Origin: Gemmatimonadota bacterium
Lineage (GTDB): Bacteria; Gemmatimonadota; Gemmatimonadetes; Palauibacterales; KS3-K002
NCBI GenBank assembly: GCA_039586795.1
Contig: JBDHJS010000032.1
Location: forward strand, 3,847-67,846
Length of the DNA: 64,000 bases
Direction: 5' to 3'
Shown: in pieces, positions 8,031 through 59,842 of the stretch
Layout: each line of letters starts with the position of its first letter
Position numbering within the stretch: position 1 is the stretch's first letter
Made by a program: the position numbers and the translations under genes
Notes under the pieces: model-generated
What the model saw: only the letters and a program-made list of their open reading frames with translations
Told to the model about the DNA's origin: nothing
The model's database searches: none

Positions 8031-8072
8031 GAGGCAATCCACAACTAACGCCGCGTACGACAGGAAAGAGGA

Positions 8073-9776
8073 ATGGACAAGATTGTAGAATGCGTACCTA
8101 ACTTCTCAGAAGGTCGCAGCGACTCCGTCATAAAGGAGATCACCGACGTAATAGAAGCCGTCGCTGGAGTCCGTTTGCTTGACGTGGATCCCGGTCGCGA
8201 CACGAATAGGACGGTCGTGACCTTCGTCGGCGAGCCCGAGACTGTGGAGGAAGCGGCATTCCGAGCGGTGGAGCGTGCGTCTCAGGTGATAGACATGCGT
8301 CAGCATCAGGGGGCGCATCCGAGGTTCGGCGCCACCGATGTATGTCCTTTTGTTCCGGTATCCGGCGTCACGATGGACGATTGCGCGGAAATGGCGAGGC
8401 GCGTCGGAAAGCGAATCGGAGATGAGTTGGGGATTCCCGTGTATCTGTACGAGCACGCGGCGAGCCGGCCCGAGCGCCAGAACCTGGCTAAGGTTCGGGC
8501 TGGAGAATATGAAGGGCTGCCTGAGAAGCTCAAAGATCCCAAGTGGGCGCCAGATTTCGGGCCGGCCGAGTTCAATCCGACGGCAGGTGTTACGGCAGTC
8601 GGCGCGCGTGAATTTCTCATTGCCTACAACATCAATCTCAACACCACCGACCGGCGTTATGCCAACGAGATCGCTTACGTGATCCGTGAGCGTGGCCGGT
8701 GGAAAAGGGTGGGGAATACGGAGCCGTTCTACTATAAGGGCGATGTGGTTCGCTTTCCGGAGGATGGAACTTACCCCTGCGGCCCGTGCGGCTTCGTAGC
8801 GAGTTCTTTCGCCGAACTCGAAAAGCACTATCGAGACGAACATGGAGGCGATCTTCGTCAGCGCTACGAAGATCTGGCTATCGGTGTCGAGAACCCGAGC
8901 GGTCCGGTCTTCAACGACGGGAAGTTCACTAAGCGCGGGATCGTGATCACCGGCTCGGAGGTCGTCGGGGTGGTGCCTTACGAGGCGATGCGCGAGGCCG
9001 CCGTCTTCTATCTTAAGCGCATGCAGAAGTCGACGGGATTGCCGGTGCCGGATTTGATGGAGACGGCCATCCAGTCGATGGGGCTTCGCGATGTGGCGGC
9101 GTTCGACGCAGAAGAAAAAATCCTCGGTGTGCCACGTATGGATGGGCCGTTGGTCAATCGCTCGACCTATGACTTCGTCGATGAGGTGTCGCGCGACACG
9201 CCGGCGCCAGGCGGTGGATCGGTGGCGGCGCTCGCTGGAGCGTTGGGAGGTGCGTTGGCCGGGATGGTCGCGAACCTGTCGGTCGGCAAGGGAGAATTCG
9301 ACCCGCACTATGAGAAGCTGTGCTCGATCGCTGAACGTGCTCAGCAGGTGAAGGACGCTCTCGTGCGTGGCGTCGATGACGATACGAGCGCTTTCGATCT
9401 CGTGATTGAAGCGATGCGGATGCCGAAGGATACCGAGGAAGAAAGGGCTGTCCGTCAGGAAGCGATGCAGGTGGGGTATAAGGCGGCCACCCGGGTGCCG
9501 CTGAAGACGGTGGAGGACTGTCGACAGGCGCTCGACCTGTGTGTGGAGATGGCCGCGATCGCCGATCCGGAAATGGTCAGCGACGTCGGTACCGGCGCCC
9601 ACATGGCCGGTGCCGGCGCTCATGCTGCTGCTTACAACGTGCGCATCAACCTGCGTCATATCTCCGATGATTCTTTCGTTGGTGAAATGCGATCAGCGGT
9701 CGAGCGACTGATTGGGGAGTGCGATGCTTTGAAGGCCGAGGCCGTGGCCAAGGTCGAGGAGGTGCTCGGCGGGTGA
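8073..9776 (+). CDS. ftcD: bifunctional glutamate formimidoyltransferase / formimidoyl-THF cyclodeaminase (FTCD-like)
   Basis: N-terminus MDKIVECVPNFSEGR, then HPRFGATDVCPFVP. The cyclodeaminase half contains TPAPGGGSVAALAGALGGALAGMV. Confidence 0.85.
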   Translation: MDKIVECVPNFSEGRSDSVIKEITDVIEAVAGVRLLDVDPGRDTNRTVVTFVGEPETVEEAAFRAVERASQVIDMRQHQGAHPRFGATDVCPFVPVSGVTMDDCAEMARRVGKRIGDELGIPVYLYEHAASRPERQNLAKVRAGEYEGLPEKLKDPKWAPDFGPAEFNPTAGVTAVGAREFLIAYNINLNTTDRRYANEIAYVIRERGRWKRVGNTEPFYYKGDVVRFPEDGTYPCGPCGFVASSFAELEKHYRDEHGGDLRQRYEDLAIGVENPSGPVFNDGKFTKRGIVITGSEVVGVVPYEAMREAAVFYLKRMQKSTGLPVPDLMETAIQSMGLRDVAAFDAEEKILGVPRMDGPLVNRSTYDFVDEVSRDTPAPGGGSVAALAGALGGALAGMVANLSVGKGEFDPHYEKLCSIAERAQQVKDALVRGVDDDTSAFDLVIEAMRMPKDTEEERAVRQEAMQVGYKAATRVPLKTVEDCRQALDLCVEMAAIADPEMVSDVGTGAHMAGAGAHAAAYNVRINLRHISDDSFVGEMRSAVERLIGECDALKAEAVAKVEEVLGG

Positions 9777-22220: not shown

Positions 22221-23000
22221 ATGACACGAGACGCGAGCACAGGGCGGTCGACGCCCTACGAGATGGTTTTTGCCGGTGGCCTGGCCGATCAACACTTCGC
22301 CTCGATCTCGGAAGAGACGGTGGGTGGCGCGAAGCAGCGCGATGTGTTCGCACGGCTTGAGAGCGTTGCGGCGCTGGTTCAACAGTTGGTGCCGGATGAT
22401 GCTGACGCCGCAGCGTTTGACCGCTCACTCGACCTGATCTTCCATTGCTACCATTTCTGGAAAGCTGGCTGCCCCCTGTATGCCCTCGAGGACGGTGCAG
22501 TTCGTGATCTGATCGATAACCCGCCGGAGCTGTCGGCCTGGACGCCGACACCGCCTCACGCGAGTCTGTACCTGGAGCTTCCCCAGAATCTGTTGTGGGC
22601 GGCCGTGACAGAGGGGGATATTCCGGAGCCGGTTGAGGGGCTGTTCCTGAGGATCGAGGAGGGCCAGGCCGTCTCCATCCTGCTTGTCTTGGGGATGCGC
22701 CTGGATCGGCCGGGCTTCAGCGTGTCCGGGATCGAAGCGCAGGTGAGCGATGCCACTGACACGGACGAGCCGGGGGCCTTCCGCTCTGACATCCCGGGCG
22801 CCGATCTGGCCGGGCTATATTCTCTGCAGCGTCCCCTGGAAGCTCTGTTGCTAGCGCTGCGTGTTCTATGGTACGTCGAAAGTTATCCCGAGGCCGCGGA
22901 GTCGGTCCGCGTCGATATTGAGGCGACGTCAGAGAGCAACGGTGGATTGACGAACCTGGATCATCACATCGTGCGTCTCGTCGAACGGAGTCGCGAATGA
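22221..23000 (+). CDS. hypothetical protein
   Basis: 259 aa with GC3-biased codons. Stop overlaps the start of the next gene (ATGA). No motif recognised. Confidence 0.55.
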   Translation: MTRDASTGRSTPYEMVFAGGLADQHFASISEETVGGAKQRDVFARLESVAALVQQLVPDDADAAAFDRSLDLIFHCYHFWKAGCPLYALEDGAVRDLIDNPPELSAWTPTPPHASLYLELPQNLLWAAVTEGDIPEPVEGLFLRIEEGQAVSILLVLGMRLDRPGFSVSGIEAQVSDATDTDEPGAFRSDIPGADLAGLYSLQRPLEALLLALRVLWYVESYPEAAESVRVDIEATSESNGGLTNLDHHIVRLVERSRE

Positions 23001-29839: not shown

Positions 29840-30090
29840 GGTGACGATGATGTTCGGTATGGAAACCCAGGCTCGGCGGCAGGGGAGGCTCCAAGCGGGT
29901 CTCCGGGCCCGCGGCGGTAAGGGGCCGCTGGCCCGGGAGTTGCGGCAATTCTCGTGTTTTCTGGAAGTTGCCGCGAACCTGAATATATTGTGGCCGGCTA
30001 TCGGGTCGCGCCAGATCGGTGCGGCGAGCTCATTGACCGAACAGAACTCGGGACTGATCACAAGGTCAGCCCAGCGGATAGAGCGTAACG

Positions 30091-33000
30091 GTGATGAAGA
30101 CGAAGGTGAGAGTCGAATCTGAATCGCCTCCGATTGGGGCGATCGTCGACGCCATTCAAGCGAGCGCTGATCTCGGCCAGGGACCGGCGCTCAAGTCGTA
30201 TGCAGAAGAGCTGCTCAGTCGAGCGGTCCCCGACTTCTTCGCCGATCGGCGCGAAGGCGAGGTCGAGGAGATCGTCACGTCGATGTTCGACATGCTCCAG
30301 CGCACGCCACCCGATGAACTGGGCGTGCGGGTATATCAGCGCCCGGACTACGGTCACTGGGGCAGCGTCGAAATGGTTGTAAGAGACCGGCCGTTCATCG
30401 TCGATACAGTGCGCCAGCTCCTGACCTCGAAGGGGTTCGAGATTCGCCACCAGTTGCACCCGGTCGTGGTCGTTGAGCGCGATAAAAGCGACGCGATCAC
30501 CGATGTGCATGAGTGGAGGAGCGAAGGCGAGCGGACGTCGACGATGTACTGTGAGTTCGAAGGGCATCTGGATAAGGCGATAGTCGAGGCGCTGGAAGCG
30601 GAGATCCGGGCCTCCATGGAGGAGCTGCGGCTCGCCACCAGCGATTTCGAGGCGATGCTGGAGAAGACGGAAGTTGTCATAGCAGCTCTCCACAGCGAAG
30701 CCGAGATCAATCCAAGTAGAGCTGCCGAGTTCGAGGAAGCTGTCGCGTTTCTCGAGTGGCTGAAGAACAACAACTTCGTTTATCTGGGCTACCGGGAGTA
30801 CGATTTCACCCAGCAGGAGGATGGGCGTACCTCTGTAACAGTTAGCCGTGGATCGGGGCTCGGGATTCTTCGACGGGAATCGGATTCAGGGGTTTGGGAG
30901 CCGAGGCCCGTAGAGGATCTGCCGGCCGACCTCCGCGCTCGCGTGTTGCATGGTCCGTTGCTCGTCGTATCCAAGACGAACTCGGAGTCTCGCGTTCATC
31001 GTCGCGCCAGGATGGACTACGTGGGCCTGAAGAAGCACAACGAGCAGGGTGAGGTCGTCGGTGAGCGTCGCTTCCTTGGTCTGTTCACATGGCAGGCCTA
31101 TTCGGAGCCTAAGGGCAGCATCCCGATCCTGAGGGAGAAGCTCCGCGATGTACTGGCTATGGCCAACGTGCCGGAGGGCGCTCACGACTACAAAATGATC
31201 CTCGCGCTGTTCAACGAGATGCCGCTCGAGGAACTCTTTCTGCTCAGTGCGGAGGACCTGAGTCGACAGATATCCGCGGCGATGGCCACGGAGGGAACCG
31301 GTGACGTGCGTGTCGTCCTTACGCCGGAAGCGTTGGGCAGGGGCGTGAACGTGATGGTGATTCTCCCGAAGCGAAACTACACCGACGAAGTAAGGGGCCG
31401 TCTTCGCACGGAGTTGTCGCGGGCCATGGGCGGAACCATTCTCGATGACCATCTGGCGATCGGCGCCAGCGACGCGGCGCGACTCCATTTCTACATTTCG
31501 GCGCCGCCGGAGCGTGTCGATTCCGCCGACGTCGATTCGCTGCGAGCGTTGGCCGGCTCCATCGTTCGAACCTGGAAGCAGCGCCTCGCCGACGCACTAG
31601 ATGAGCGATATGAGGCTGAAGCCGCTCACCGACTGCAGCGAGCCTACTTCGACTCCTTCTCACCCGCGTATGTCGCCACAGTGGATGTCCAGACTGCGGT
31701 CGAGGACATCGCCCGGCTCGACGCGCTGCAGCAAAGCGGAGTGATGCAGGTTGCACTCGAGGACCACCAGAATGGCGGCCTGGAGGCCACCTCGCTGCGA
31801 CTGTTCGTCAAACGTGGCTCGATGATCCTGGCCGACGCCATGCCGGTGCTAGAAAACCTGGGGTTAAGAGTTATCGAGGCCGACGCCATGGATGTCGGGT
31901 CCGAAGAAAGTGCGGCCACCATTCACAAGTTCGTGGTTCAGGGGCCGGACTCCAGGCGTCTCGATCGCGCAGCGATCGGTGAACGTATGACCGCTACCCT
32001 GTGCGCGATCGCCACGATGCGGACCGACAACGACCAATTCAACGAACTGGTCATAACGGGAGGTCTGTCCTGGCAAGAGGTCTCGGTACTGCGTGCGTAC
32101 TCGGCTTACGCGTTTCAGGTGGGTGCGGTGACCAGTCGTCGTGCGGCCCCTGACGCGCTCGCAAACCACCCGGAGTGTGCTCGGCAGCTGATCGACGTAT
32201 TCCGCACCAAGTTTGACCCGGGCCTGGAAGGCGATCGCGCTGTTGAGCTCGAATCGTGTGTTGGTCGGTTTCGTGAATGCTTGCAGGCTGTCGACTCGAT
32301 ACTCGACGACCTGACGCTGCAGCGCCTGCAAAACCTGATCGACGCTACGGTCAGAACGAGTTACTTCCGCAACATCGGGCGTGACCTCAAGTGGCCACGG
32401 ACCACCTTCAAGTTCGACTGTGCGGCTATTCAGCAAATGCCAGATCCACGCCCGGCTCGTGAGATGTTCGTTCACGGCCCACGTACGTCGGGCCTGCATC
32501 TCCGTTTCGGTCCTGTGGCGCGCGGTGGTCTGCGATGGAGCGAGCGGCCGGACGATTTCCGCACCGAGGTCCTCGGTCTGGTGAAGACGCAGCAGGTAAA
32601 GAACACGGTGATCGTGCCGAGTGGAGCGAAGGGCGCCTTCTACGTGCGAAAGCCACCGGCGGATCGGTCGCAGATGGAAAGGGCGGTGCGCCAGTCGTAC
32701 GAAGGGTTCATCGGCGGCCTGCTCGACGTTACGGACAACGTGGTGAAGGGCAAAGTCGTACATCCACCCGACACCGTCATCTATGATGATGAGGACCCGT
32801 ACCTCGTCGTGGCAGCCGACAAGGGGACGGCCCGTTACTCGGACGTCGCCAATGGCATCGCCGGCGACAACGAGTTCTGGCTGGGCGATGCGTTCGCTTC
32901 GGGCGGTTCCCAGGGCTACGACCACAAGAAGGAGAAGATCACCGCGCGGGGGGCGTGGGAGTGCGTCCGTCACCACTTCCGCGAAATGGGTATTGATCCC

Positions 33001-39562: not shown

Positions 39563-40219
39563 ATGGGCTATCGCGTCCGGAGCAGGGCAGGCGCCGGGCA
39601 GTTGCTGCTTACAGTAGCGTTTGCTGCCTGCGGGAGCCACACCGTAGACTCTGACTCGCCGTCTGCTGTCGAGGACTGTTGCAGCGAATTCGACTACGTG
39701 CTCGAGGTCACGATCTTCCAGATCGACGTGGTGCATCTGTATCTGCGTGTCGATCCTGAGACAGGTCTGGCCGTCTCGAGCTTGGTGTCGCGCGGCAGTC
39801 GCTCACGAGCGTTGGAAGATTCAGTCGTCGAAGCACTGCTTAGGACTCCGAGCGCCTACGCGCGTATGACTTTTCTGATGGAAATGTCGGCCGAGCGGTT
39901 TCTGGACAACACTATAGAGACCCTCGAGGGGATGGGTGAAGAGGGTTTGCTGACCGCTGCCGAGGTCGATAACCTCGTCCGATCGGCTCGGCGGCGGTTT
40001 GCGTTTCTCAATGAATCCGGCATCACGGCAGGCGACTATCTCGAACAATTGCTCCACGGCGACTCGCTCAAAACGCGATTCTTCAGGGAAGACGGCGAAC
40101 GTAGCATGGAGGATGTGCAGATTGGACGCGCGCACAGGATCGCGCTGCTGGGGTCTTATTTCTCGGAAGCGTCAGACTTCCGAGACGGTCTGCTCGATCA
40201 GGTGTTCGGGTCCAGATGA
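39563..40219 (+). CDS. hypothetical lipoprotein
   Basis: Lipobox FAACGS. 218 aa with no firm family assignment. Confidence 0.5.
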   Translation: MGYRVRSRAGAGQLLLTVAFAACGSHTVDSDSPSAVEDCCSEFDYVLEVTIFQIDVVHLYLRVDPETGLAVSSLVSRGSRSRALEDSVVEALLRTPSAYARMTFLMEMSAERFLDNTIETLEGMGEEGLLTAAEVDNLVRSARRRFAFLNESGITAGDYLEQLLHGDSLKTRFFREDGERSMEDVQIGRAHRIALLGSYFSEASDFRDGLLDQVFGSR

Positions 40220-42909: not shown

Positions 42910-43851
42910 TCACGCGTCTTCCTGCGGGATGGGCCACAATCCAGCACGCTCCTCAGCCATACGGTTCCCGACGACCTGACGGCCGGTCGTATGGGCGACG
43001 GCGATCACCACCCATCTTAGCTTCCCCGCGAGCGAGATGGACACTCGTTCATCCCACGCGTTTTGCCCGAGCCTTCGAACAACGTGACCGATGTCTCGGT
43101 AGATGAGTCGCGCGGCTGCTATAGACCAGGCGGAACGGAAGGGCAACTGCGCGATACCCACCAGGGCAGAGGTGTAATATCGCTCGGCCTCATCGAGCAA
43201 CTTCCCGATGGCCACCGCGAGTGGCGCACGGTACTCCGAGTGTGTAATGCGGTCGGGATCGATTCCGCTTTCGCGAATCCACTGTCGAGGGACGTACACG
43301 CGACCCGCGTCAGCGTCGCCGATGACATCGCGCGCGATGTTCGTCAGTTGGAACGCAATACCTAGATCGGCCGCCCGGTCCAGAGCGTCGCGGTCTCGCA
43401 CGCCCATGATGCGGGCCATCATCACGCCGACGACCCCGGCAACGTGATAGCAGTAGCGGATCGTATCATCCAGGGTGTCGAAGTCGTCGCCACGCACGTC
43501 CATGGCGAAGCCGTCCAGGTGGGCGAACGGGTAGATCTCCGGCATGTCGTACTCCGCGACGACGCGGCTCAGCGCTCGGAACGGCACCTCCTCGACCGGC
43601 TCGCCCGCCAGGGCCAGACGCGTCTGCTCGGTCAGGTACTCGAGGACGTCGGCGGGCGGTCTTTCATGCGATTCATCCGCGAATCCCAGTTTCTGTCCGT
43701 CCACGCAGTCGTCACAGTAGCGGCACCACGTATAGAGCAAATGGGCGCTGTTGCGAATCGGTGCGGGAAGAAGTAAAGACGCGGTGAAGAAGCTCTTCGA
43801 GCCTTTTGCGATGGTCTTACGACTCTCCCGGAGCACTGCGTCGGTGGTCAT
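42910..43851 (-). CDS. crtB: phytoene synthase
   Basis: GSKSFFTASLLLP, LYTWCRYCDDCVDG and the second Asp-rich region NIARDVIGDADAGRVYVP. Confidence 0.9.
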   Translation of the reverse strand: MTTDAVLRESRKTIAKGSKSFFTASLLLPAPIRNSAHLLYTWCRYCDDCVDGQKLGFADESHERPPADVLEYLTEQTRLALAGEPVEEVPFRALSRVVAEYDMPEIYPFAHLDGFAMDVRGDDFDTLDDTIRYCYHVAGVVGVMMARIMGVRDRDALDRAADLGIAFQLTNIARDVIGDADAGRVYVPRQWIRESGIDPDRITHSEYRAPLAVAIGKLLDEAERYYTSALVGIAQLPFRSAWSIAAARLIYRDIGHVVRRLGQNAWDERVSISLAGKLRWVVIAVAHTTGRQVVGNRMAEERAGLWPIPQEDA

Positions 43852-43862
43852 CTCTCCCTTTG

Positions 43863-45368
43863 TTAGCTTTTCCCGAGGTCTTCGAGGATCAGTTTTGCCG
43901 TCGCCTTCGCAGAGCTCACCACGCCGGGCACACCGGCCCCGGGATGCGTCCCGGCTCCGACGAAGTACAGACCCCTGAAGCGGTCGTCTCGATTGTGCAC
44001 GCGGAAGTAAGCACTCTGCGTCAGCACGGGCTCGAGAGAGAACGCCGATCCTTGGTACGAGTTGAGCTCGGTGACGAAGTCGCTGGGTGTGAATATACGA
44101 CTCGTGACCAGATCGTCACGCAGGCCAGGAATGCACTGTGCTTCCAGGTATTCCAGGATGTGATCGCGATAACGCGGGCCTTCCACCGACCAGTCGATAT
44201 CGGCTTTTCCGAGATGTGGAACCGGCGCCAGGACGTAGAACGCCTCGCAGCCATCGGGCGCTAGAGAGGGATCGGTGACGGTCGGCACATGCAGGTAGAG
44301 TGAGGGGTCATCGGCGAGGATCCCTCGCTCGAAGATATCATCGAGTAGTTCACGATATCGGGGTCCAAACAGCACCATGTGGTGCGCTAGCTGTGGATGC
44401 TTGGTGCGCGTTCCAAAGTAGATGAGAAAGAGCGACATGGAAAAACGACGTCTTCGCAGACGTCTGGCCTGGCGGCGCCCCCAGCTTTCGTGACCGAGAA
44501 GACGTCCGTACGTGTGAACGACATCGGCGTTGCTCGCGACGACGTCCGCCTGAAGTTCACTGCCGTCAACGAGCTTCACCCCGCGAATCTGCTTTCCCTC
44601 GGTCAGAATCTGCTCGACGGCGGTGTCAAGCAGGACCGTCCCGCCGATCGACGTGAATAAATCAGCTAGCGCACGTACAAGTGCGCCTGTGCCTCCGCGG
44701 GGGAAGAAGACGCCCCACTTGCGCTCCAGCATATGAATGAGCGTGTAGATCGCCGACGTACGAAACGGGTTTCCTCCCACCAACAGTGCATGGAAACTGT
44801 ATACCTGCCGCAGGTGTGGGTCGCGAATGAATCGCGAGACGATTCCGTAGACGCTGCGATACGCCGCCAGCCGGATCAGCTGTGGCGCTACTCGAACCAT
44901 GCTACCCCAGTCCAGGAAGGGTACGTCCGCCAGTTTCACGTACCCCTGCTCGAATACCTCAGCGGCATACGCGAGGAATCGGGCATACCCATCCACATCG
45001 GGCGGGTTCTTATCGTGGATCTGCCGGTTGGTAAGCTCGAGGTCGTTGGTGTAGTCGAATCGGTAGCCGTCTTCCCATTGCAGTCGATAGAAAGGCCACA
45101 CCGGCATCAGCTCCACCCAGTCATCTATCTTCTGGCCGGCGATTGTGAAGAGCTCTGTTAGCAAGTCGGGCGCGGTGATCACCGTTGGGCCCGCGTCGAA
45201 GGTGAACCCGTCCTGCTGATACACGTAGGCGCGCCCGCCGGGCCGATCACGGCGCTCAACGAGCGTCGTCGATACGCCAGCCGCCTGCAGTCGAATGGCC
45301 AGTGCTAGCCCACCAAAGCCGCTCCCGATTACAACAGCCAACCGTTGGGATCTCGGGTTCTCAGTCAT
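43863..45368 (-). CDS. crtI: phytoene desaturase
   Basis: FAD fold AVVIGSGFGGLALAIRLQAAGV...VERRDRPGGRAY and C-terminal GLYFVGAGTHPGAGVPGV. Confidence 0.95.
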   Translation of the reverse strand: MTENPRSQRLAVVIGSGFGGLALAIRLQAAGVSTTLVERRDRPGGRAYVYQQDGFTFDAGPTVITAPDLLTELFTIAGQKIDDWVELMPVWPFYRLQWEDGYRFDYTNDLELTNRQIHDKNPPDVDGYARFLAYAAEVFEQGYVKLADVPFLDWGSMVRVAPQLIRLAAYRSVYGIVSRFIRDPHLRQVYSFHALLVGGNPFRTSAIYTLIHMLERKWGVFFPRGGTGALVRALADLFTSIGGTVLLDTAVEQILTEGKQIRGVKLVDGSELQADVVASNADVVHTYGRLLGHESWGRRQARRLRRRRFSMSLFLIYFGTRTKHPQLAHHMVLFGPRYRELLDDIFERGILADDPSLYLHVPTVTDPSLAPDGCEAFYVLAPVPHLGKADIDWSVEGPRYRDHILEYLEAQCIPGLRDDLVTSRIFTPSDFVTELNSYQGSAFSLEPVLTQSAYFRVHNRDDRFRGLYFVGAGTHPGAGVPGVVSSAKATAKLILEDLGKS

Positions 45369-46543
45369 GTCGATCTTCCGGCGTTTGTCTCCATCAATGC
45401 TTTGATTGCGGCTCCGATCGGTACCGGAGGCACACCAGCGAGAATCCGGAAACCGTCGAGCGCAGTTAGGCGCGCCGCGTAGAAGCGTGCGATTAGGCGT
45501 TCCGGCAACGTATAGAACCGCTCCAACACGCGATAGCGCCGATGGGGCTCGGCGGCGAGGTAGAGCATTCGGTTAAGGCCACGGAAGAGACGCCCAGATC
45601 TCCACGAACTCTCGGACAGTCCACGAAGCAGCCGATACGCATCGTTCGGCGTGGTCTTGGCAAGCAGGTCGGCCGAGCGTACCGCGCTGGGAAGCGAATA
45701 GCCTGTAGTCGGATGTACGAGCGCCGCCCGCAGCCCGATCCGCGCCAGGCGATCGGTGTCGCTCCAGAATTCGTCGATGTCGCCAGACAACAGGACGGGC
45801 AATACGCCCGATTCTTCGCGCTGGACTCCGGATACCGACCAGCCCGAACGCTCGGCGTAGAGAAGGATCTCGTTCCTGATCGCCTGCGCATCGATCTCTG
45901 GAGAGTCGCTGTAGTAAGTGTCTTCGATGAGCGCCGTTCGGGATGTGAATGGCAGGACATAGACGAAACGAAATCCGTCCATCTGGTCGACCGTGGCGTC
46001 CATCAGGATGGGATGGTTCAGTTCGATCGGTCGTTCGAAATCGACAACTTGCCCGAGAAACTTCTGGTAACCTAGACCCAGGGCAGCGCTCGACATAAAC
46101 CCGCGACCGTCGACGACCGTGGCAGCGCTGTAAACCTCGCCGCTGGCCAGCGTCACCGCCTGCTCGGTCATTTCGGAGACCTCGACTCCGAACTGCACCT
46201 CCTCGCCGAGGCTCGCTGCGATGCGCTCGTGGAAGTCAGCCGACTCGATGGACTGATAGCCCTGGGCGATCACTCTGCGATATCTTGGAAAGCGTACCTC
46301 GTGCTGCGGCCAGCGGTGACTGACCAACGGTTCCATCCAGGCCTGTTCTTCAGGCGTCAGGTCCCCGTCGTGAAACGACCAGGTGTGGTTCCCGCCCAGC
46401 GTGGGCCCGCGTTCCAAGACTCTGAATTTGAGATCGGGGCGTCGCTCTATGATGCGGTATGCGGCCAGGCCGTTGGCCAAACCGCCCCCTACGAAGAGAT
46501 AGTCGAAGTCCATGCGACCCGAGTCAGTGTGTGTCTTGGGCAC
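45365..46543 (-). CDS. crtY: lycopene beta-cyclase
   Basis: DYLFVGGGLANGLAAYRI, LGGNHTWSFHDGDL and HRWPQHEVRFP. Its stop overlaps the crtI start by 4 nt. Confidence 0.9.
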   Translation of the reverse strand: MPKTHTDSGRMDFDYLFVGGGLANGLAAYRIIERRPDLKFRVLERGPTLGGNHTWSFHDGDLTPEEQAWMEPLVSHRWPQHEVRFPRYRRVIAQGYQSIESADFHERIAASLGEEVQFGVEVSEMTEQAVTLASGEVYSAATVVDGRGFMSSAALGLGYQKFLGQVVDFERPIELNHPILMDATVDQMDGFRFVYVLPFTSRTALIEDTYYSDSPEIDAQAIRNEILLYAERSGWSVSGVQREESGVLPVLLSGDIDEFWSDTDRLARIGLRAALVHPTTGYSLPSAVRSADLLAKTTPNDAYRLLRGLSESSWRSGRLFRGLNRMLYLAAEPHRRYRVLERFYTLPERLIARFYAARLTALDGFRILAGVPPVPIGAAIKALMETNAGRST

Positions 46544-52351: not shown

Positions 52352-52411
52352 AAGCGCACAGAGACAAGGCAGTGTTTGGAAGTCGCGTTATTGCGGAGGA
52401 CTTTGACCGGC

Positions 52412-54346
52412 ATGACACAGCTGATCGGGCGAGTCGTCGGTACCGAGCGAAAGCCCAACACCACACATGAGTTCCACTTCTGGACCAATCTGGAAGCTCA
52501 GATTGGCATCGGCTCGATCGTCAAGGTCGTGGCGAATACGCAGACGGTATACGGCGTGGTGGTCGAGGGGTTCAGCTATTCCGATCTGATGTCACCGCTC
52601 CATGACTACATCGGCGCCGACGCCGACCCGGAAGCCGAATCGCGTTCCGCGTCCCAGCGACCCGAGATCCGCCTCTACTCTGCCGCTGTGCTACGCCGCG
52701 AGCCTGAAGAACCGGTCCAACCCGTCCCAATGGGCGCCGTCTTCCTGGCGGACGACCACGACGTCGTCGTCGGGTTGCGGATGGACACCTACGTCGGGGT
52801 CGAAGAGGAGACGGGTATCCCCCTCGGCCTCTACACGAGCGGCGGTCTGGAGGCGAAGGTCTATCTCGACGCCGATTTCTTGCTAGGCCCGGAAGCCGCT
52901 CACATGAACATCACGGGCGTGAGCGGTCTAGCCACAAAGACCAGCCTGGTCGAGTTCCTGCTGGCTTCGATCTTCGAGTACATGCCACCGGCCAAGGGAT
53001 CGGTCGCTGCCGTCGCCTTCAACGTAAAAGGCCCCGATCTATTGTTCCTCGACCAGGCCGGCGAGCTGGACGAGAACGACCTTCGCATGTACGGACAGCT
53101 CGGCGTGCCAGCGCGACCATTCGAGGTGGTACGGTACTACGCGCCGTACAAGGCAGACGGTTGGAACCTGAACACTCTTCGTACGCACCCGGACCTGGTC
53201 GACAACGTCGAGTCGCTGCGCTGGGGATTGAAAGAAGTGATGCAGTTTTCCGAGGTACTGCTCACTCGAGATGATCTGGATGCCAAGGCGGACGCGCTGG
53301 TCGATTTCATACGCGATCGCGTTCTCGATCAACAGTTCGGACCCAGCCTCGGGCACCTTGTCGCGCGCGAGCATACGGTGCGCACGTTCCGTGACCTCGA
53401 GGACTGGTTCGACGATGTATTGGCCTTCTGCGAGATGAACGGGACCGACCGCTGGATGACGCATCATACGGCGACGATCCGCAAGGTGCGAAATCGTCTG
53501 AACGGTATCGTCAGTCGTGCGCACGGTCTCGTCGTAAACGATGATGCGGTCAACGATCTTCCGTGGGGTGAGTTCGAAGACCGATCTGTCTATGTCGTTG
53601 ATGTGGCGAATGTCGAGCCGGAGGCCCAGGACCTGGTCTTCGCCAGGGTAGTCTCGAAGCTGCGCGAGGGGCTGGAGTCCGGGACGTTGGGCGTCAAGCA
53701 CGTAGTCGTGCTTGCCGATGAGCTGAACAAGTATGCGCCGTCGGATGGGCCCGACACCTATGTGCGAAAGATGCTCCTCGACATCAGCGAGCGCGGTCGA
53801 TATCTGGGGCTGGTGCTGTTGGGCGCACAGCAGTTTCGCTCACAGGTGCATCGACGCGTCGTGGGCAATAGCGGTTCGTCTGTCTACGGGCGCATGGATA
53901 TGGACGAACTGGCGACACCCGGTTACGCGGTGCTATCCCCGGCCACGAAGACCAAGCTGGCCAGTCTTCCCAAAGGCGACCTCATGGTTCGGCACCCCCA
54001 CTTCACACAGCCGGTCTTTGTGCGCTTTCCAAGGCCGACCGTGATGCGCGGCCGAGATGGAATCGAGCGATTTCCGCCGCGCCAGGAGGTTCCGTTCGAG
54101 GATGCGATCGCGCTTGGCTTGAAGCGTCTCGACGGGAAGGTCAAGGCGAACGAGGTGAAAGATGCTATCGCGGGCCGCGATCGGGACGAGGTCTTACGGG
54201 CCTATCACCACACGGAGCGTGCGCGGCCAGACAATGCTATGCGCTTCTTCACGTCGCGCCTAAAGAGGAAGATGGTATCCGAGGTCGTTGATTCGACCCC
54301 ACGGCCGGTACCGGTTCCCGACGATCCTTACGGAGGTGATCGGTAG
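52412..54346 (+). CDS. HerA/FtsK-superfamily ATPase (HerA-like, deviant Walker A)
   Basis: N-terminal barrel-like segment LIGRVVGTERKPNTTHEFHFW...IVKVV...VYGVVVE. P-loop region NITGVSGLATKTS. Walker B HVVVLADELNKYAP follows the HerA-type DEAHxxxP pattern. GGAGGA lies 11 nt upstream of the ATG. Confidence 0.7.
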   Translation: MTQLIGRVVGTERKPNTTHEFHFWTNLEAQIGIGSIVKVVANTQTVYGVVVEGFSYSDLMSPLHDYIGADADPEAESRSASQRPEIRLYSAAVLRREPEEPVQPVPMGAVFLADDHDVVVGLRMDTYVGVEEETGIPLGLYTSGGLEAKVYLDADFLLGPEAAHMNITGVSGLATKTSLVEFLLASIFEYMPPAKGSVAAVAFNVKGPDLLFLDQAGELDENDLRMYGQLGVPARPFEVVRYYAPYKADGWNLNTLRTHPDLVDNVESLRWGLKEVMQFSEVLLTRDDLDAKADALVDFIRDRVLDQQFGPSLGHLVAREHTVRTFRDLEDWFDDVLAFCEMNGTDRWMTHHTATIRKVRNRLNGIVSRAHGLVVNDDAVNDLPWGEFEDRSVYVVDVANVEPEAQDLVFARVVSKLREGLESGTLGVKHVVVLADELNKYAPSDGPDTYVRKMLLDISERGRYLGLVLLGAQQFRSQVHRRVVGNSGSSVYGRMDMDELATPGYAVLSPATKTKLASLPKGDLMVRHPHFTQPVFVRFPRPTVMRGRDGIERFPPRQEVPFEDAIALGLKRLDGKVKANEVKDAIAGRDRDEVLRAYHHTERARPDNAMRFFTSRLKRKMVSEVVDSTPRPVPVPDDPYGGDR

Positions 54347-54347
54347 C

Positions 54348-55235
54348 ATGAATCGCAGACGACTGTTCTCAGCCAGTCTCTGCCTGGTCATCGCCGGCTA
54401 CGCACCGCCGGCTTATGCTCAGGAACCTGGCGGAGAAGCAACAGGACGTCGTGTATTTCTCCGGTTGGCCGCGGACTCGGGCGCTGTGGGGCACTTCAGG
54501 TTCACCGGCCAGGGACAGAGCCAGCTGGTGTTTGACATACCTCCCGATGACCCCAGGAACGAACTGCTTGCTTCCATCACGCAGCCGAAGACGATCACCC
54601 GGGATATCGCGGGGACGATCGTATCCACGCCTGCTGAAGGTGACGACGAGCGTCGCTACCTGATCTACTGGCTCGGCTACCGGTTGGCAGGGATAGAGGA
54701 GGATCGCAGCCTCACGCCAATACAGTGGGACAGCATTTTCCAGGCGGCCGGTCGCCGTGCTGAACTTCGGTTCACCGCTCGGGGACAACCCCGTGGCGTT
54801 CAGGTATCATCGGAAGCTGTGCGCCCCGTGGCGCAGTCGCTGGCGGACGTGTTGGCGGGGCTTGCGTTGGCGCTTCCAGCCGACTCGGTTGGACCGACCG
54901 ATAGGTGGAGAGACGAGTTGGCCGTCCCCGTCGAAGGGCTGGACGGGTCGAAGAAGCTCGTCGTCGTGGAGGTGTCTTACCGACTAACTGAGTTGCAGGT
55001 GGAGCCCGGTGGAGTTAAGGCACATATCGAATTTGATGGCGCGCCAGTGCGCATCGGCGACGACTCTGGAGAGGTGACGGGAAAGTACTTTGGAGAGAGC
55101 GTCTTTTCGGTTGATGGTGGCAGATACGAGCAAGTGATGGCCATCGCCAACCTGGAGATAAAGTGGAAGGACAGCAGTGGGCTGCCACCCAGCCGAACCA
55201 TTCTCGAATGGCGGGGGCAGCTGGTTCGCAGGTAG
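54348..55235 (+). CDS. secreted/periplasmic hypothetical protein (paralog A)
   Basis: ATG lies 1 nt after the upstream TAG. Signal peptide MNRRRLFSASLCLVIAGYAPPAYA|QEP. 295 aa, beta-rich. Shares LPADSVGPTDRW with the LPETAVAVGDSW block of the next ORF. Confidence 0.6.
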   Translation: MNRRRLFSASLCLVIAGYAPPAYAQEPGGEATGRRVFLRLAADSGAVGHFRFTGQGQSQLVFDIPPDDPRNELLASITQPKTITRDIAGTIVSTPAEGDDERRYLIYWLGYRLAGIEEDRSLTPIQWDSIFQAAGRRAELRFTARGQPRGVQVSSEAVRPVAQSLADVLAGLALALPADSVGPTDRWRDELAVPVEGLDGSKKLVVVEVSYRLTELQVEPGGVKAHIEFDGAPVRIGDDSGEVTGKYFGESVFSVDGGRYEQVMAIANLEIKWKDSSGLPPSRTILEWRGQLVRR

Positions 55236-55291
55236 AGCACTTGTCGTTTTGGGCGCCGAAGTCGGGCTGGTCAGCTGTGTTCGCTCCTAAC

Positions 55292-56182
55292 ATGATTCGT
55301 TCTCTTCTTGTTGCGTTGCCGCAGCTCGCTTTCCTAGCGACCGCGTTGGCCACGGGTCAGGAACCGGCCTATCGTCTCCATCTCACGGAAGAAGTTGGGC
55401 AGATCAGTAGTTATCGTCTGGTGTTCGATCTGGAGATGCGGGCCGAGTATACCGGGGGCGGCGAACTGAGTAGCGCTACTCGACAGTTCATGGCAGCGCT
55501 TTCGGAAGGGATGAGAGTGCGGACGGCCGTTGAGTATGATGAACGTCTGGTGGCGGTGGAGGAAGATGGGGTGCGAACGTTCGATGTCCGTTGGCACGAC
55601 TACAAATTCCAGGGCCTCATCGGTGGAGAAGAGATACCAGAACCTCCAGGTCGCGCGGAAGCGACACGTGATCTGCTTGCGGCCAGCGCGGCGCGCGTGA
55701 AGACAACGCCTTCCGGCCGCACGATCGAAGTCGAGTACTCGAACCCACAGGTGGAGACGTTTGTTCGGCAATTCGAACAGGCAGGCATGCCAACCTACCT
55801 GCCGGAGACCGCCGTTGCCGTCGGCGACAGCTGGACTAGCCGCGCAAGTTTTCCGTTGGGGGCGGGCGCCGGGGCAGGGACGATGGAGCTCGATCTCGTC
55901 CACACGTTCACAGAACTACGCCAGGGCCCGGATGGCCCGATCGTAGTAATCGAAATCGCCGGGTCGTACTCACAGCTTCAGGGTTTGGAGGATGTGGGGA
56001 TAGGGGCGCCCCTACATATGGACGCGCGCTTGACGGGCGTGTCTCTGTTTGACATTACCTGGGGGCGCTTCGTGGGTGGAGACTTCCAGCTAGATATGTT
56101 CGCCCTCAGCGCTTCAGAAGAAGTGGAGATTCAACTGACGGGACACGCCAACGGGAAACTCGAGCTCTTGAGCGGATCATGA
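55292..56182 (+). CDS. secreted/periplasmic hypothetical protein (paralog B)
   Basis: Signal peptide MIRSLLVALPQLAFLATALA|TGQEP. 296 aa. Stop overlaps the next start (ATGA at 56179-56182). Confidence 0.6.
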   Translation: MIRSLLVALPQLAFLATALATGQEPAYRLHLTEEVGQISSYRLVFDLEMRAEYTGGGELSSATRQFMAALSEGMRVRTAVEYDERLVAVEEDGVRTFDVRWHDYKFQGLIGGEEIPEPPGRAEATRDLLAASAARVKTTPSGRTIEVEYSNPQVETFVRQFEQAGMPTYLPETAVAVGDSWTSRASFPLGAGAGAGTMELDLVHTFTELRQGPDGPIVVIEIAGSYSQLQGLEDVGIGAPLHMDARLTGVSLFDITWGRFVGGDFQLDMFALSASEEVEIQLTGHANGKLELLSGS

Positions 56183-57390
56183 AGCTCGTTCACGCCGCCG
56201 ACCTACACCTCGGCTATCGCGCCTACCACCGGACGGATTCCCGGGGGATCAACATCCGGGAGGCGGATGTGGCGAGGGCGTTCCGCGAGCTGCTGGAACG
56301 CACAACCAGCATCGCGCCTGACCTGTTCATCGTGGCGGGTGATGTCTTTCACACGGTGCGCCCCTCGAACACCGCGATCGCCGACGCGTTTCGGCAACTC
56401 TCGCGGTTTTGCGCCGAGTCGGGTGGTACTCGGGTCATCATCATCGCGGGCAACCACGATTCTCCCAAAGCCGTCGAGACCGGCAGTATCCTCCGACTGT
56501 TCGACGAGATCGATGGCGTCAACGTCGTCCACCAGGATGGTCGCCGGCTGGTCTTCTCGGATCTGGATGCGTCCGTCTTGTGCCTTCCGCATAGCGAACT
56601 GGCCGGGGCCGGTGATCTGGCTATCGAACCAGGCGACCAAACTTCGAAGAACATTCTGGCTGCGCACGCCGAGATTGATGACGAGCGACTGAAGCTACTG
56701 ACCGACTTTGGAGCAGCCAAGCTGGCACGCAACGCCATCGATCCGAAACAGTGGGGGTACGTTGGCCTCGGGCACTACCATGTGCGTACACAGTTGGCAC
56801 CCAACATGTTTTACGCTGGGGCGATCGAAAGAACGAGCCTCGACATATGGGCGGAGGCCGATAACGCGAGAGTCGCAAAGCAAGACACCTGGAATAAGGC
56901 GGCATGGGGGAAGGGGTTCATCGAGTTTGACCTCGAATCCGGCAAGGCGGAGTTCCACAAGCTCGACTGCCCCAGGCCCGTCCTCGACCTGGAGCCCGTC
57001 CTCTACCTGGATCAGTCGCCAGCCGAGCTCGATAGCGCGATCGAATCGGCACTCGCGACGGTGCACGCTGGGATCGCCGGGAAGATTATCAGGCTGCGTG
57101 TATTCAATGTGCCTCGCGAGCTCTACCGCGAGCTCGACCACAAACGGATACGTGAGTACAGAACCGAAGCGCTCCATTTCCACCTCGATGCTCGGCCGCC
57201 GCAAGTCGAACGTCGCGCCGGGTCCGGGGCGCCGGGACGCCGCATGACACTAAAAGAGGAACTCGAGTCGTTTCTGAAGGACCGCTTCAATCTGGAGTCG
57301 GGTGGCGTCGACAGAGAGGCGCTGATCGACCTGGGTCTTCGTTATCTGCACGAGGCCGAGGAGAGGGAGTCCCTGGAGGGAAGGGAGTGA
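56179..57390 (+). CDS. Mre11/SbcD-family nuclease (calcineurin-like phosphoesterase)
   Basis: Motifs AADLHLGY, VAGDVFH, IAGNHDSP and GLGHYHV. The N-terminal region (READVARAFRELLE) resembles archaeal Mre11. Confidence 0.85.
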   Translation: MKLVHAADLHLGYRAYHRTDSRGINIREADVARAFRELLERTTSIAPDLFIVAGDVFHTVRPSNTAIADAFRQLSRFCAESGGTRVIIIAGNHDSPKAVETGSILRLFDEIDGVNVVHQDGRRLVFSDLDASVLCLPHSELAGAGDLAIEPGDQTSKNILAAHAEIDDERLKLLTDFGAAKLARNAIDPKQWGYVGLGHYHVRTQLAPNMFYAGAIERTSLDIWAEADNARVAKQDTWNKAAWGKGFIEFDLESGKAEFHKLDCPRPVLDLEPVLYLDQSPAELDSAIESALATVHAGIAGKIIRLRVFNVPRELYRELDHKRIREYRTEALHFHLDARPPQVERRAGSGAPGRRMTLKEELESFLKDRFNLESGGVDREALIDLGLRYLHEAEERESLEGRE

Positions 57391-57391
57391 C

Positions 57392-59842
57392 ATGAAGCTG
57401 CTTCGCCTCGGTTTGAAGCGCTTCCGGCAGCACGCCGACACTCAACTCGAGTTCCGGCCAGGGCTCACCGGCATCATAGGGCCAAACGGGGCCGGCAAGA
57501 CAACGATCCTGGAGGCGATCGCCTGGGCGATCTACGGCGCGCCGGCGATCCGCGGCACAAAGGATACCCTCCGTTTCAATCGCGCTCCCGGTCGATCAAC
57601 GGTGCGCGCCGAACTGGAGTTCGAACTGCGCGGCGAACGGTTCCGCGTGAGCCGAACGCCCCGCACCGCCGAGCTCTTCAAAGCGGAAACGGAAGACCCG
57701 ATCGCCGCCGGAGTAATGGAGGTGACCCGGCAGCTGACCCGCCGTCTCGGTATGACGCGCCGCGAGTTCTATAACACCTACTTCACGGGCCAGAAGCAAT
57801 TGCAGTTCCTCGCGGCGATGAAGCCCGCGGAACGCGCTCGCTTCTTGTCACAGGTATTGGGTTACGAACGGTTGCGCATAGCACAGGATCTGGTCGGCGA
57901 ACAGCGCAGAGTGCTGCGTGGCCAGGTCGAGGAACTGACACGCACGCTGGGCGATCCGGAGAAGATCAAAGCGGAGTTAGAATCGACGGAGGAACGTCTC
58001 AAGGAGGCGAACGCGACGCTCGCCGGAGCAGAGAAGCAGCAAACCGAGGCCGCCACACGCTTCGCTGAGCTCGAGCCAGTGTGGACGGACTTGCAGGCCA
58101 AGCGCGAACGGTACACGGAACTGCAGCAGCAGATCCTCGTGGCGGATACAAAACTGGGACGTGTCGCGGAAGAGCAAAAGAAGGCGGAGGTCGAGCTTGC
58201 TACGCTCTCCGAGGCAGCTAGTGAACTGGACAAGTTGAGATCCGATGTAGCGCCACTCAGCGGCTTAAGGGAAGAAGAGGAGCAACTCCGCGTGCTGGCC
58301 GATACTGATTCGCGTCGCCGTGCTCTGGCTGGCCAGCTAGAGGAGCAGCGCAACCGCGTCGAAGCTATAGCCAAGAAGATCGGCGAGCAGGAGGAGAAGG
58401 GCCGCGGCCGAGACGAGCTAAAGGAGAAGCTCGCTCAACAGGAAGAAGAGTGTGAGCGGCTCGAAAAGAAGCGAGAGGAGGTGGCGTCGCACTGGCAGGG
58501 TGACAGACAGGAAGTGGCTGCCCAGCTTCGCATTCTGCTAGACCAGGCCAAGGAGCTTGAAGACAAGGTAGCGCAACTCGAGAAGGAGGGTCCTGACGGC
58601 GTTTGCCCGACGTGTCAGCGACCTCTGGGTGCGGAATACGAGAGCGTGCTCGGTCTGGTACGCGATGACTACGAGAACATCGTTCAGGATGGGAAGTGGT
58701 TCCGCAAACGGGAAAAACAACTCGAAGCCGAGCCGCAAGAGGTCATTGAGTCTCGCGAGATACTCGGCGTGGCGCGTGAGGAACAGGAACGGTTGATGGC
58801 CCAGCTCGCGGAGGCGGAATCGGCATCGTCGCAGGCAGCAAGCCTGAGATCGGAGCTGGAAGCCGAGGAGGTGCGGGCCCGGAAGCTGGCGGGTGAGATC
58901 GCTGTACTGGCGGAAGGCTACGACCCAGTCCGGCACAAGGACGTTCGTGAGTCCCTCGAACGGTTGAACGATCTGGAAAAACAGATAACACAGCTGGAAA
59001 CGCGCCTTGAACGCGAGCTAGCGCTGAAGGCTGATCTGGCGGAAGCCCAGGAGGAGGAGCGGCAGATAAGAAGCCAGATTGCTGAGCTGGAGAAGTTCCT
59101 CGCCGACCTCGGCTTCTCGGAGGACGAGTACGCAGCCGCCGGTCTCAGATTCGAAGAGGCTCGCGTTGCGCTGGAGGCGACCCGGTTGAAAGTGGCGGAG
59201 GCCAAAACGGAACTCGAGGGCGCACGCGCCGCTGCGGAGTCAGCGCGTCAGACGGAGAAAGAATACAAACAGTTGAAGAGCACGATCGGCGAGCGCGAAC
59301 GCGAGCTACGTTTGCACAACGGTCTCACGCGGGCGCTTGGCGAGCTCCGGCACGAGTTGAACGATCGTGTTCGTCCTGAGCTCTCGGAAGTCGCCAGCGT
59401 ATTCCTGACAGAGCTGACCGACGGCCGCTACAACCGACTCGATATCTCGAAAGACTACGATGTGGTAGTGCTCGATGACGGTGAGGAGAAGCCGGTGATA
59501 TCGGGCGGCGAAGAGGACCTGGCTAACCTGGTCCTACGACTAGCGATCAGCCAGATGATCGCCGATCGGGCGGGGCAGACCCTGTCATTGCTCATCTTCG
59601 ATGAAGTCTTCGGCGGGCTCGACGACCAACGCCGTGACAGCGTCGTGCGTCTGTTGCAGCGACTTCAAGATCGATTCGAACAGGTTGTGCTGATCACACA
59701 CATCGAATCGATACGGGACGGAATGGATCAGGTTGTCCGCGTGATGTACGATGACTCTTCTGGCGCCAGCCTGATTCAGGACGAGAGTCCCGGTGCATCG
59801 TCCGAGGAGCCCCGACTCGAAGATCTGGTTCTGACGACCTGA
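57392..59842 (+). CDS. Rad50/SbcC-family SMC-like ATPase with zinc hook
   Basis: Walker A GPNGAGKTT. Roughly 550 aa of coiled coil with a central CPTC (58604-58615). Signature ISGGEEDLANL and Walker B LLIFDEVFGGLD. Confidence 0.85.
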   Translation: MKLLRLGLKRFRQHADTQLEFRPGLTGIIGPNGAGKTTILEAIAWAIYGAPAIRGTKDTLRFNRAPGRSTVRAELEFELRGERFRVSRTPRTAELFKAETEDPIAAGVMEVTRQLTRRLGMTRREFYNTYFTGQKQLQFLAAMKPAERARFLSQVLGYERLRIAQDLVGEQRRVLRGQVEELTRTLGDPEKIKAELESTEERLKEANATLAGAEKQQTEAATRFAELEPVWTDLQAKRERYTELQQQILVADTKLGRVAEEQKKAEVELATLSEAASELDKLRSDVAPLSGLREEEEQLRVLADTDSRRRALAGQLEEQRNRVEAIAKKIGEQEEKGRGRDELKEKLAQQEEECERLEKKREEVASHWQGDRQEVAAQLRILLDQAKELEDKVAQLEKEGPDGVCPTCQRPLGAEYESVLGLVRDDYENIVQDGKWFRKREKQLEAEPQEVIESREILGVAREEQERLMAQLAEAESASSQAASLRSELEAEEVRARKLAGEIAVLAEGYDPVRHKDVRESLERLNDLEKQITQLETRLERELALKADLAEAQEEERQIRSQIAELEKFLADLGFSEDEYAAAGLRFEEARVALEATRLKVAEAKTELEGARAAAESARQTEKEYKQLKSTIGERERELRLHNGLTRALGELRHELNDRVRPELSEVASVFLTELTDGRYNRLDISKDYDVVVLDDGEEKPVISGGEEDLANLVLRLAISQMIADRAGQTLSLLIFDEVFGGLDDQRRDSVVRLLQRLQDRFEQVVLITHIESIRDGMDQVVRVMYDDSSGASLIQDESPGASSEEPRLEDLVLTT

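Follow-up and report, generated by a model that had tools for sequence, protein, structure and literature searches.

A string of five genes in a Gemmatimonadota genome, encoding a HerA-like ATPase, two exported paralogous proteins, an Mre11 nuclease and a Rad50 ATPase, raises the question of what the two exported proteins are doing inside a DNA-end-processing operon and where the NurA nuclease of that operon has gone. The string lies at 52412-59842 of a 64-kb stretch of contig JBDHJS010000032.1, hereafter the window. A preliminary description had proposed an archaeal-style operon in which the NurA slot was replaced by the two middle genes. Our analysis points to a probable answer, namely a housekeeping end-resection operon that has lost its adjacent nurA and carries a duplicated envelope-protein passenger, which would be neither a substitute for NurA nor a subunit of the DNA machine.

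The string consists of five same-strand open reading frames (ORFs), ORF1 to ORF5, at 52412-54346, 54348-55235, 55292-56182, 56179-57390 and 57392-59842. These coordinates, and the four junctions in the preliminary description, proved exact. ORF1 and ORF2 are joined by TAG-c-ATG (54344-54350), 56 nucleotides (nt) separate ORF2 from ORF3 (55236-55291), the ORF3 stop overlaps the mre11 start in ATGA (56179-56182), and mre11 and rad50 meet at TGA-c-ATG (57388-57394). A consensus scan within the string found no promoter-like or terminator-like sites above the counts in shuffled sequences; separate promoters or terminators had been named in the preliminary description as grounds for rejecting it. 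Judged from their spacing, the five genes are probably co-transcribed.

ORF1 (herA; 52412-54346, plus strand; 644 residues, with an alternative TTG start at 52376) is predicted to encode a bacterial-type HerA hexameric translocase/ATPase. Searched against the PDB, ORF1 had one significant match, Deinococcus radiodurans HerA (DrHerA; 7f6d_B, E 3.9e-44), collinear over residues 4-552 in two aligned stretches (4-249 and 324-552). A profile of 16 HerA homologs recovered the same chain at E 2.4e-55 and no second chain. Because DrHerA alone is matched by both the single sequence and the profile, ORF1 is assigned to the bacterial type, and the HerA-like nature claimed for it earlier is borne out. The protein shares with DrHerA the unusual Walker A pattern G-x-S-G-x-A-T-K-T-S, here GVSGLATKTS (residues 169-178; 52916-52945), and its Walker B/NKYAP segment reads VVVLADELNKYAP (residues 431-443; 53702-53740). 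GVSGLATKTS, VVVLADE, NKYAP and the conserved arginine region ERGRYLG are all present in ORF1 and invariant across the 16 homologs; the named HerA homologs are from Gemmatimonadota. The N-terminus can be aligned to that of DrHerA, and the Pfam HAS-barrel model matches it weakly (E 0.041; 14.4 bits against a cut-off of 25.2). Pfam detected no membrane-related domain in HerA. Unlike DrHerA, the protein has an extra C-terminal tail of about 90 residues. The end of this tail (residues 617-644; 54260-54343) is acidic-aromatic, carries VPxDPYGG and is conserved in the window clade; D638, P639 and Y640, past the DrHerA-aligned region, are invariant in the 16 homologs. This segment could be a candidate partner-docking peptide.

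ORF4 (mre11; 56179-57390, plus strand) encodes an Mre11/SbcD nuclease of 403 residues. The Pfam Metallophos model scored 42.1 bits against a cut-off of 21.5, and a programmatic search located the five phosphoesterase motifs (DLH, GDVFH, GNHD, H163 and GHYH), as the preliminary description had reported. All NCBIfam matches were below cut-off (sbcd 70.9 versus 77.65; Mre11_Sulfo 66.4 versus 500), and the sequence comparisons place ORF4 as a divergent Mre11/SbcD member. Among PDB matches, archaeal Mre11 (M. jannaschii 3auz and P. furiosus 1ii7) ranked above the T. maritima protein, which ranked above E. coli SbcD. ORF5 (rad50; 57392-59842, plus strand) encodes a Rad50/SbcC ABC-ATPase of 816 residues, for which the Pfam models AAA_23 (83.2 bits), SMC_N (67.3 bits) and SbcC_Walker_B (34.1 bits) were each over cut-off. 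It has an ABC head split by a long coiled coil, with GPNGAGKTT, SGGE, LLIFDE and ITHIE. The central CPTC zinc hook, also recognised earlier, lies at residues 405-408 of 816 (58604-58615) and is weakly matched by Pfam Rad50_zn_hook (E 0.015). NCBIfam gave the archaeal Rad50 model PRK03918 at E 1.5e-62 versus 3e-28 for sbcc, and both head halves matched P. furiosus and M. jannaschii Rad50 best, followed by Thermotoga and then E. coli SbcC. By sequence, the Mre11 and Rad50 of the string are closest to the archaeal proteins.

NurA was searched for with a hidden Markov model (HMM) built from plasmid seeds and then with a phylum-specific HMM. A translated HerA search had found herA-sbcD-SMC strings on plasmids of Streptomyces, Sphaerospermopsis and Ca. 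Chlorohelix, and the flanking proteins of about 340 residues on the Streptomyces and Sphaerospermopsis plasmids match D. radiodurans NurA (DrNurA) at E 2.5e-22 and 8.4e-19. The Gemmatimonadota sample comprised 85 loci: the contigs of close homologs plus 80 further loci from a HerA-alignment scan, one genome per species. These 80 are the best 80 of at least 571 relatives, and their record titles nearly all name Gemmatimonadota (three name no phylum); HerA contexts outside the phylum were sampled through the plasmids. Of the 85 loci, 67 were found to carry a same-strand NurA-like ORF upstream of herA and mostly abutting it, so the usual operon of the phylum is nurA-herA-DUF6263-mre11-rad50, where DUF6263 is the family of the exported gene. 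A profile of 20 of the NurA-like ORFs had DrNurA as its sole significant PDB match (E 2.7e-6). A lone Gemmatimonadota NurA-like sequence matched nothing in the PDB, and the Pfam NurA model either missed these proteins or scored them below threshold, indicating that the NurA of the phylum is divergent. Its connection to NurA comes from the profile and from the plasmid seeds. The proposed replacement of the NurA slot does not hold up against this arrangement: in most Gemmatimonadota a NurA-like gene stands on the upstream side of herA in an operon that also holds the exported gene, which places the exported genes in another and older slot.

In the 64-kb window, no NurA-like ORF was found by the two NurA HMMs in six frames or by Pfam on 30 large ORFs. 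The two HMMs likewise found none in the window-clade loci, where carB lies upstream of herA; for two of these loci, L007 and L008, the sequence starts with herA and gives no information. Three loci of the sister clade differ from one another. L015 has an intact nurA at 1148-2236, 4.7 kb upstream of herA, and L002 keeps only the C-terminal 140 residues (7629-8138, called as a 118-residue gene), with three unrelated genes between the remnant and herA. In L016, no nurA was found within 7 kb. Read from these sequences, the sister clade presents nurA in decay, in intermediate states, and the window lineage appears as one that has lost its herA-adjacent nurA. In the N-terminal (NurA-docking) region of HerA, no relaxed conservation was seen in the NurA-less clade (column conservation 0.88-0.92), which is a weak test in so shallow a clade.

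ORF2 (54348-55235, plus strand; 295 residues) and ORF3 (55292-56182, plus strand; 296 residues) encode predicted exported DUF6263-like beta-barrels, here paralogs A and B. Their paralogy, asserted in the preliminary description, was recovered by BLASTP (E 2e-4) and by profile-profile comparison with hhalign (probability 98.6%, E 5e-16). Homolog searches returned 49 clusters for ORF2 and 44 for ORF3, of which the named ones are from Gemmatimonadota, and both alignments contain numerous invariant Trp, Gly, Pro and Asp columns; on this sequence conservation we take ORF2 and ORF3 to be real genes. Both have signal-peptide-like N-termini (54348-54419 and 55292-55357, plus strand), in which charged residues come first, then a hydrophobic core and then an A-x-A/G|Q site (...AYA|QE and ...ATG|QE). 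A crude hydropathy test gave a signal peptide or lipobox in 54 of 59 related slot proteins, in keeping with the export proposed earlier. The database version of ORF2 (P0121, 256 residues) begins about 39 codons late, at about 54465 compared with the ATG at 54348, and would drop the signal peptide. This start is a likely miscall of automatic annotation, since ORF2 homologs of about 290-318 residues cover 97-100% of ORF2 including its N-terminus.

AlphaFold2 models of both proteins were built from the homolog alignments. ORF2 (pLDDT 87.7, pTM 0.82) and ORF3 (pLDDT 83.1, pTM 0.80) were both modelled with confidence as all-beta barrels with long antiparallel strands and a few short helices. The best fold match of ORF2 was the N-terminal barrel of MTP/vitellogenin (TMq 0.41) and that of ORF3 the N-terminal barrel of ApoB/MTP/lipovitellin (TMq 0.45-0.47); at these values the models superpose with a moderate likeness that implies no homology to these eukaryotic proteins. 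The next-best folds were YmcC-like and LmcA lipoproteins. An outer-membrane porin was considered as well and ruled out, with porin TMq of about 0.2 and no C-terminal aromatic residue. The modelled barrel is most likely an envelope protein and may bind a hydrophobic ligand.

Pfam, NCBIfam and PADLOC gave no usable family match for ORF2 or ORF3. The Pfam family DUF6263 (PF19777) scored 11.7 bits on ORF3 against a cut-off of 26.7 and did not match ORF2. It was weakly matched by 34 of 37 ORF3 homologs (best E 3.5e-6), and its cut-off was passed by five more distant slot proteins (L019, L032, L065, L067 and L078), which the ORF2 and ORF3 HMMs also recover. No paper on the function of DUF6263 was found in the literature. 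Among 1.84 billion proteins, the wider DUF6263-like family has 323 representatives at E <= 0.001. Five distant members were sampled; two lie in herA-x-mre11 strings and three among unrelated genes, so the family is not tied to DNA repair. One contig (L090, 2041-4249) carries tandem DUF6263-like genes of 352 and 332 residues with no herA or mre11 nearby, which indicates that tandem duplication in this family is not peculiar to the repair operon.

The preliminary description had made its case depend on finding relatives of the middle genes beside herA, mre11 and rad50 in related genomes, and such relatives were found between herA and mre11. The order herA-slot-mre11-rad50 is present in 79 of the 85 loci, the other six being cut by contig ends or incomplete. 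Slots were classified in six frames with HMMs of the ORF2 and ORF3 families, and five slot genes read on from the herA frame. At least one DUF6263-like ORF was present in 53 of the 79 loci, 23 slots were empty (66-354 nt), two held a small acidic protein and one held other genes. The small proteins, highly charged and of about 170 residues without a family match, fill the slot instead of DUF6263 in L002 (11937-12443) and L016 (9032-9547); in L002, whose HerA is 66% identical, the order is herA, an unrelated 168-residue acidic protein, mre11 and rad50. The 2.6-kb insert between herA and mre11 in L052 (1861-4446) contains no DUF6263-like ORF and has ORFs on both strands, including one of 629 residues on the minus strand.

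Close relatives of the window vary in what the slot holds. ORF2 is present in L003, L005 and L011-L013 and absent from L001, L004, L006, L008, L009 and L014. In the five loci that have ORF2, a gene for a 157-residue integral-membrane protein, DUF2269, stands between ORF2 and ORF3, giving herA-ORF2-DUF2269-ORF3-mre11-rad50 in L003 and L005, and the order in L001 and L004 is herA-DUF2269-ORF3-mre11-rad50. At the corresponding place the window has the 56-nt gap at 55236-55291, and no DUF2269 ORF was found in the window. Most likely, the window clade duplicated the slot gene and gained DUF2269, the window then lost DUF2269 and was left with the gap, and a sister group lost ORF2.

In a neighbour-joining tree of HerA, all major branches include loci with the slot gene, and at least five branches include loci whose slot is empty; the sampled Gemmatimonas loci are of the empty kind. 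Pairwise distances of slot proteins correlated with those of HerA (r 0.93, falling to 0.87 when the window clade is excluded; Mantel 0 of 999), and the slot protein changes at about 2.5 times the rate of HerA (mean distance 0.69 versus 0.28). The slot gene frequently overlaps mre11 by a 4-nt stop/start, an arrangement of translational coupling, and it keeps its position through divergence to about 60% HerA identity. Since the slot-protein distances track those of HerA, the ancestor of the sampled phylum seems already to have had the slot gene. Most likely, on these sequence data, it has been inherited vertically within the operon, with several losses.

From these comparisons a mechanism can be proposed. 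The core of the operon would be a bacterial-type HerA ring translocase together with an Mre11 nuclease and a Rad50 ATPase, both archaeal-like. Judged by their homologs, Rad50-Mre11 would recognise and clip DNA ends, HerA would pump the duplex and, in most of the phylum, the NurA encoded upstream would degrade the strand fed by HerA. With the adjacent nurA lost, the 5' nuclease role would then have to be taken by Mre11 itself, by the product of a nurA at another locus or by a partner such as RecJ. RecJ is reported to bind HerA in Deinococcus (PMC4663267), and a contact between Mre11 and HerA was described in Sulfolobus (PMC2288612). Between herA and mre11, a single DUF6263-type copy would have been present since early in the history of the phylum, with two copies in the window. 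Its product would be a Sec-exported barrel outside the cytoplasm, probably co-transcribed and often translationally coupled to mre11, and the barrel protein and the repair genes may share stress-linked expression. We regard the barrel as most likely a passenger because it would lie outside the cytoplasm, evolves fast, has been lost more than once in the phylum and has relatives that sit next to unrelated genes.

Several known systems resemble this operon in part. In thermophilic archaea, herA, mre11, rad50 and nurA form a gene cluster (Constantinesco 2004 as cited in PMC9960219; Quaiser 2008, PMC2288612). As there, herA, mre11 and rad50 of the window are co-directional and tightly packed, Mre11 and Rad50 are closest to the archaeal proteins, and nurA is included in most Gemmatimonadota. 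The window differs in being bacterial, in having a Deinococcus-type HerA without a PDB sequence match to archaeal HerA, in lacking nurA and in the exported DUF6263 genes (one or two across the phylum) between herA and mre11. Three of the four genes of the end-resection string are thus present in the window, and all four in most other Gemmatimonadota. The D. radiodurans NurA-HerA complex (PDB 7F6D; PMC9960219) contains the closest solved HerA, with which ORF1 aligns in order from its N-terminal region to the end of the ATPase domain, and its NurA is matched by the upstream gene of Gemmatimonadota. In Deinococcus, nurA and herA form an operon of their own (PMC9960219), whereas herA of the window is joined to the mre11-rad50 operon, with no nurA within 64 kb. 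Our literature search for HerA and Mre11 in Gemmatimonadetes brought up no relevant paper.

The plasmid strings of Streptomyces sp. BB1-1-1, Sphaerospermopsis kisseleviana and Ca. Chlorohelix also have a bacterial-type HerA (27-33% identity), with herA directly followed by sbcD and SMC/SbcC genes. NurA is adjacent in Streptomyces and Sphaerospermopsis, and the Chlorohelix neighbour has a weak Pfam NurA match and no NurA match in the PDB. They differ from the window in their plasmid location, in having no gene between herA and sbcD and in an SMC partner of about 1000-1100 residues. The treatment of the four-gene string as an archaeal trait in the preliminary description consequently needs softening: nurA, herA, sbcD and sbcC also occur together on Streptomyces and cyanobacterial plasmids. 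On the Streptomyces plasmid (L086; NZ_CP134205.1, 415120-428352), herA-sbcD-SMC-nurA lies beside TIGR02678, TIGR02680, DUF2397 and ImmA/IrrE genes, of which we take the first three to be Wadjet components. The Chlorohelix string (L088) comes after an ImmA/IrrE gene. A role in defence or in plasmid maintenance is conceivable for plasmid-borne versions of this module. The string also shares with bacterial SbcCD the pairing of a nuclease with an ABC-ATPase that has a zinc hook; it differs in that E. coli SbcC and SbcD were the weakest PDB matches and in a Rad50 of 816 residues versus 1048 for E. coli SbcC. Classical sbcCD is, to our knowledge, not linked to herA.

Of the three readings offered in the preliminary description (a new variant of the end-processing machine, a membrane- or envelope-linked DNA-handling or defence module, and an unrelated insertion co-transcribed with repair genes), the last fits best, with the difference that the insertion is ancient and not recent. 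The exported barrels could instead be a working partner of HerA-Mre11-Rad50, an envelope-side arm that connects the processing of DNA ends with the cell surface and serves DNA uptake, export or membrane-tethered DNA processing, or a fixed-ratio envelope response to DNA-breaking stress such as desiccation or radiation. If true, this would explain the phylum-wide position between herA and mre11, the coupling to mre11 and the enlarged cassette in a NurA-less lineage. The persistence of that position, the co-divergence with HerA, the frequent coupling and the enlargement of the envelope cassette in the window clade, by duplication and by the DUF2269 membrane protein, all speak for it, as does the inclusion of membrane-working DNA pumps in the FtsK-HerA superfamily (PMC2288612). 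However, 23 of 79 slots are empty over several branches while herA, mre11 and rad50 remain intact, the copy number and companions of the slot gene vary, HerA has no detected membrane-related domain, three of the five sampled distant family members lie away from repair genes, and the slot protein evolves fast. We therefore consider such a link unlikely. That the exported paralogs took over the place and role of NurA is highly improbable. The absence of nurA from the window and from the operon flanks of its clade, together with the presence of two extra genes, would suit a takeover, but nurA and the slot gene coexist at different operon positions in most of the phylum, ORF2 and ORF3 are modelled as all-beta barrels with signal peptides and not as an RNase-H-like nuclease, and neither the NurA HMMs nor the Pfam or NCBIfam NurA models match them, which agrees with the earlier observation that the middle genes lack NurA-like motifs. 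Duplication also does not track NurA loss, as neither nurA nor ORF2 is present in the sister loci L001 and L004.

Two observations would suit a defence system against phages or plasmids with HerA-like and SMC/Rad50-like ATPases at its base: the PADLOC matches of Rad50 to LmuB and other SMC-type models (E 1.8e-31) and the genes beside the related Streptomyces plasmid string. Those matches reflect generic ABC/SMC similarity, however, the best matches of the protein being to true Rad50, and PADLOC found nothing for HerA, ORF2 or ORF3 and only marginal matches for Mre11. The locus is vertical and syntenic in nearly all sampled Gemmatimonadota and lies among housekeeping genes; defence islands have a patchy distribution, the opposite of that of this operon. 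Since HerA had no PADLOC match, the defence reading was dropped, and we give it very little weight. The end-resection operon with a lost nurA and an envelope passenger is thus the reading we prefer, and several points weigh against it. Retention of the slot phylum-wide and the frequent 4-nt overlap onto mre11 exceed what a neutral passenger needs, which argues for some co-expression benefit and leaves room for a functional link. Export of ORF2 and ORF3 is judged from sequence features and not from a trained signal-peptide predictor, and co-transcription from gene spacing. The Gemmatimonadota NurA-like family is divergent and its assignment is one of profile-level similarity, the absence of NurA covers the 64-kb window and not the whole genome, and the count of slot-gene losses depends on a distance tree.

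The surroundings of the string give a housekeeping context. Base composition is uniform between the string and the rest of the window, carB ends 60 nt from herA, and 9 nt separate the end of rad50 from the stop of a TMEM260-like gene that converges on it; the succession of carB, operon and TMEM260-like gene is also kept in relatives. A Pfam scan of the 30 other large ORFs of the window matched 26 to metabolic, regulatory or other cellular families, including one endonuclease III, and found no match (E <= 0.001) for four, at 176-1060, 22221-23000, 30058-30693 (minus strand) and 39563-40219. Genes for a squalene/phytoene synthase, a phytoene-desaturase-type amine oxidase and a lycopene cyclase follow one another at 42910-46543 on the minus strand (carotenoid pathway). 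Across the full 64 kb, scans for Rfam families and for tRNAs gave no match.

These findings do not overturn current understanding. For DUF6263, an uncharacterised family, they provide the first reproducible genomic association, and its association with the repair operon is most likely passenger-like. The window lineage is a natural experiment in which HerA remains strongly conserved, and its gene joined to mre11-rad50, once the neighbouring nurA has been lost, and relatives with a displaced or truncated nurA capture intermediate stages. The lineage allows a test of whether HerA works with Mre11-Rad50 or another nuclease without NurA. The archaeal-style four-gene cluster of nurA, herA, mre11 and rad50 is apparently the usual arrangement across an entire bacterial phylum, with further examples on plasmids from other phyla; Gemmatimonadota could therefore be a bacterial setting for the cooperation of HerA-NurA with Mre11-Rad50.

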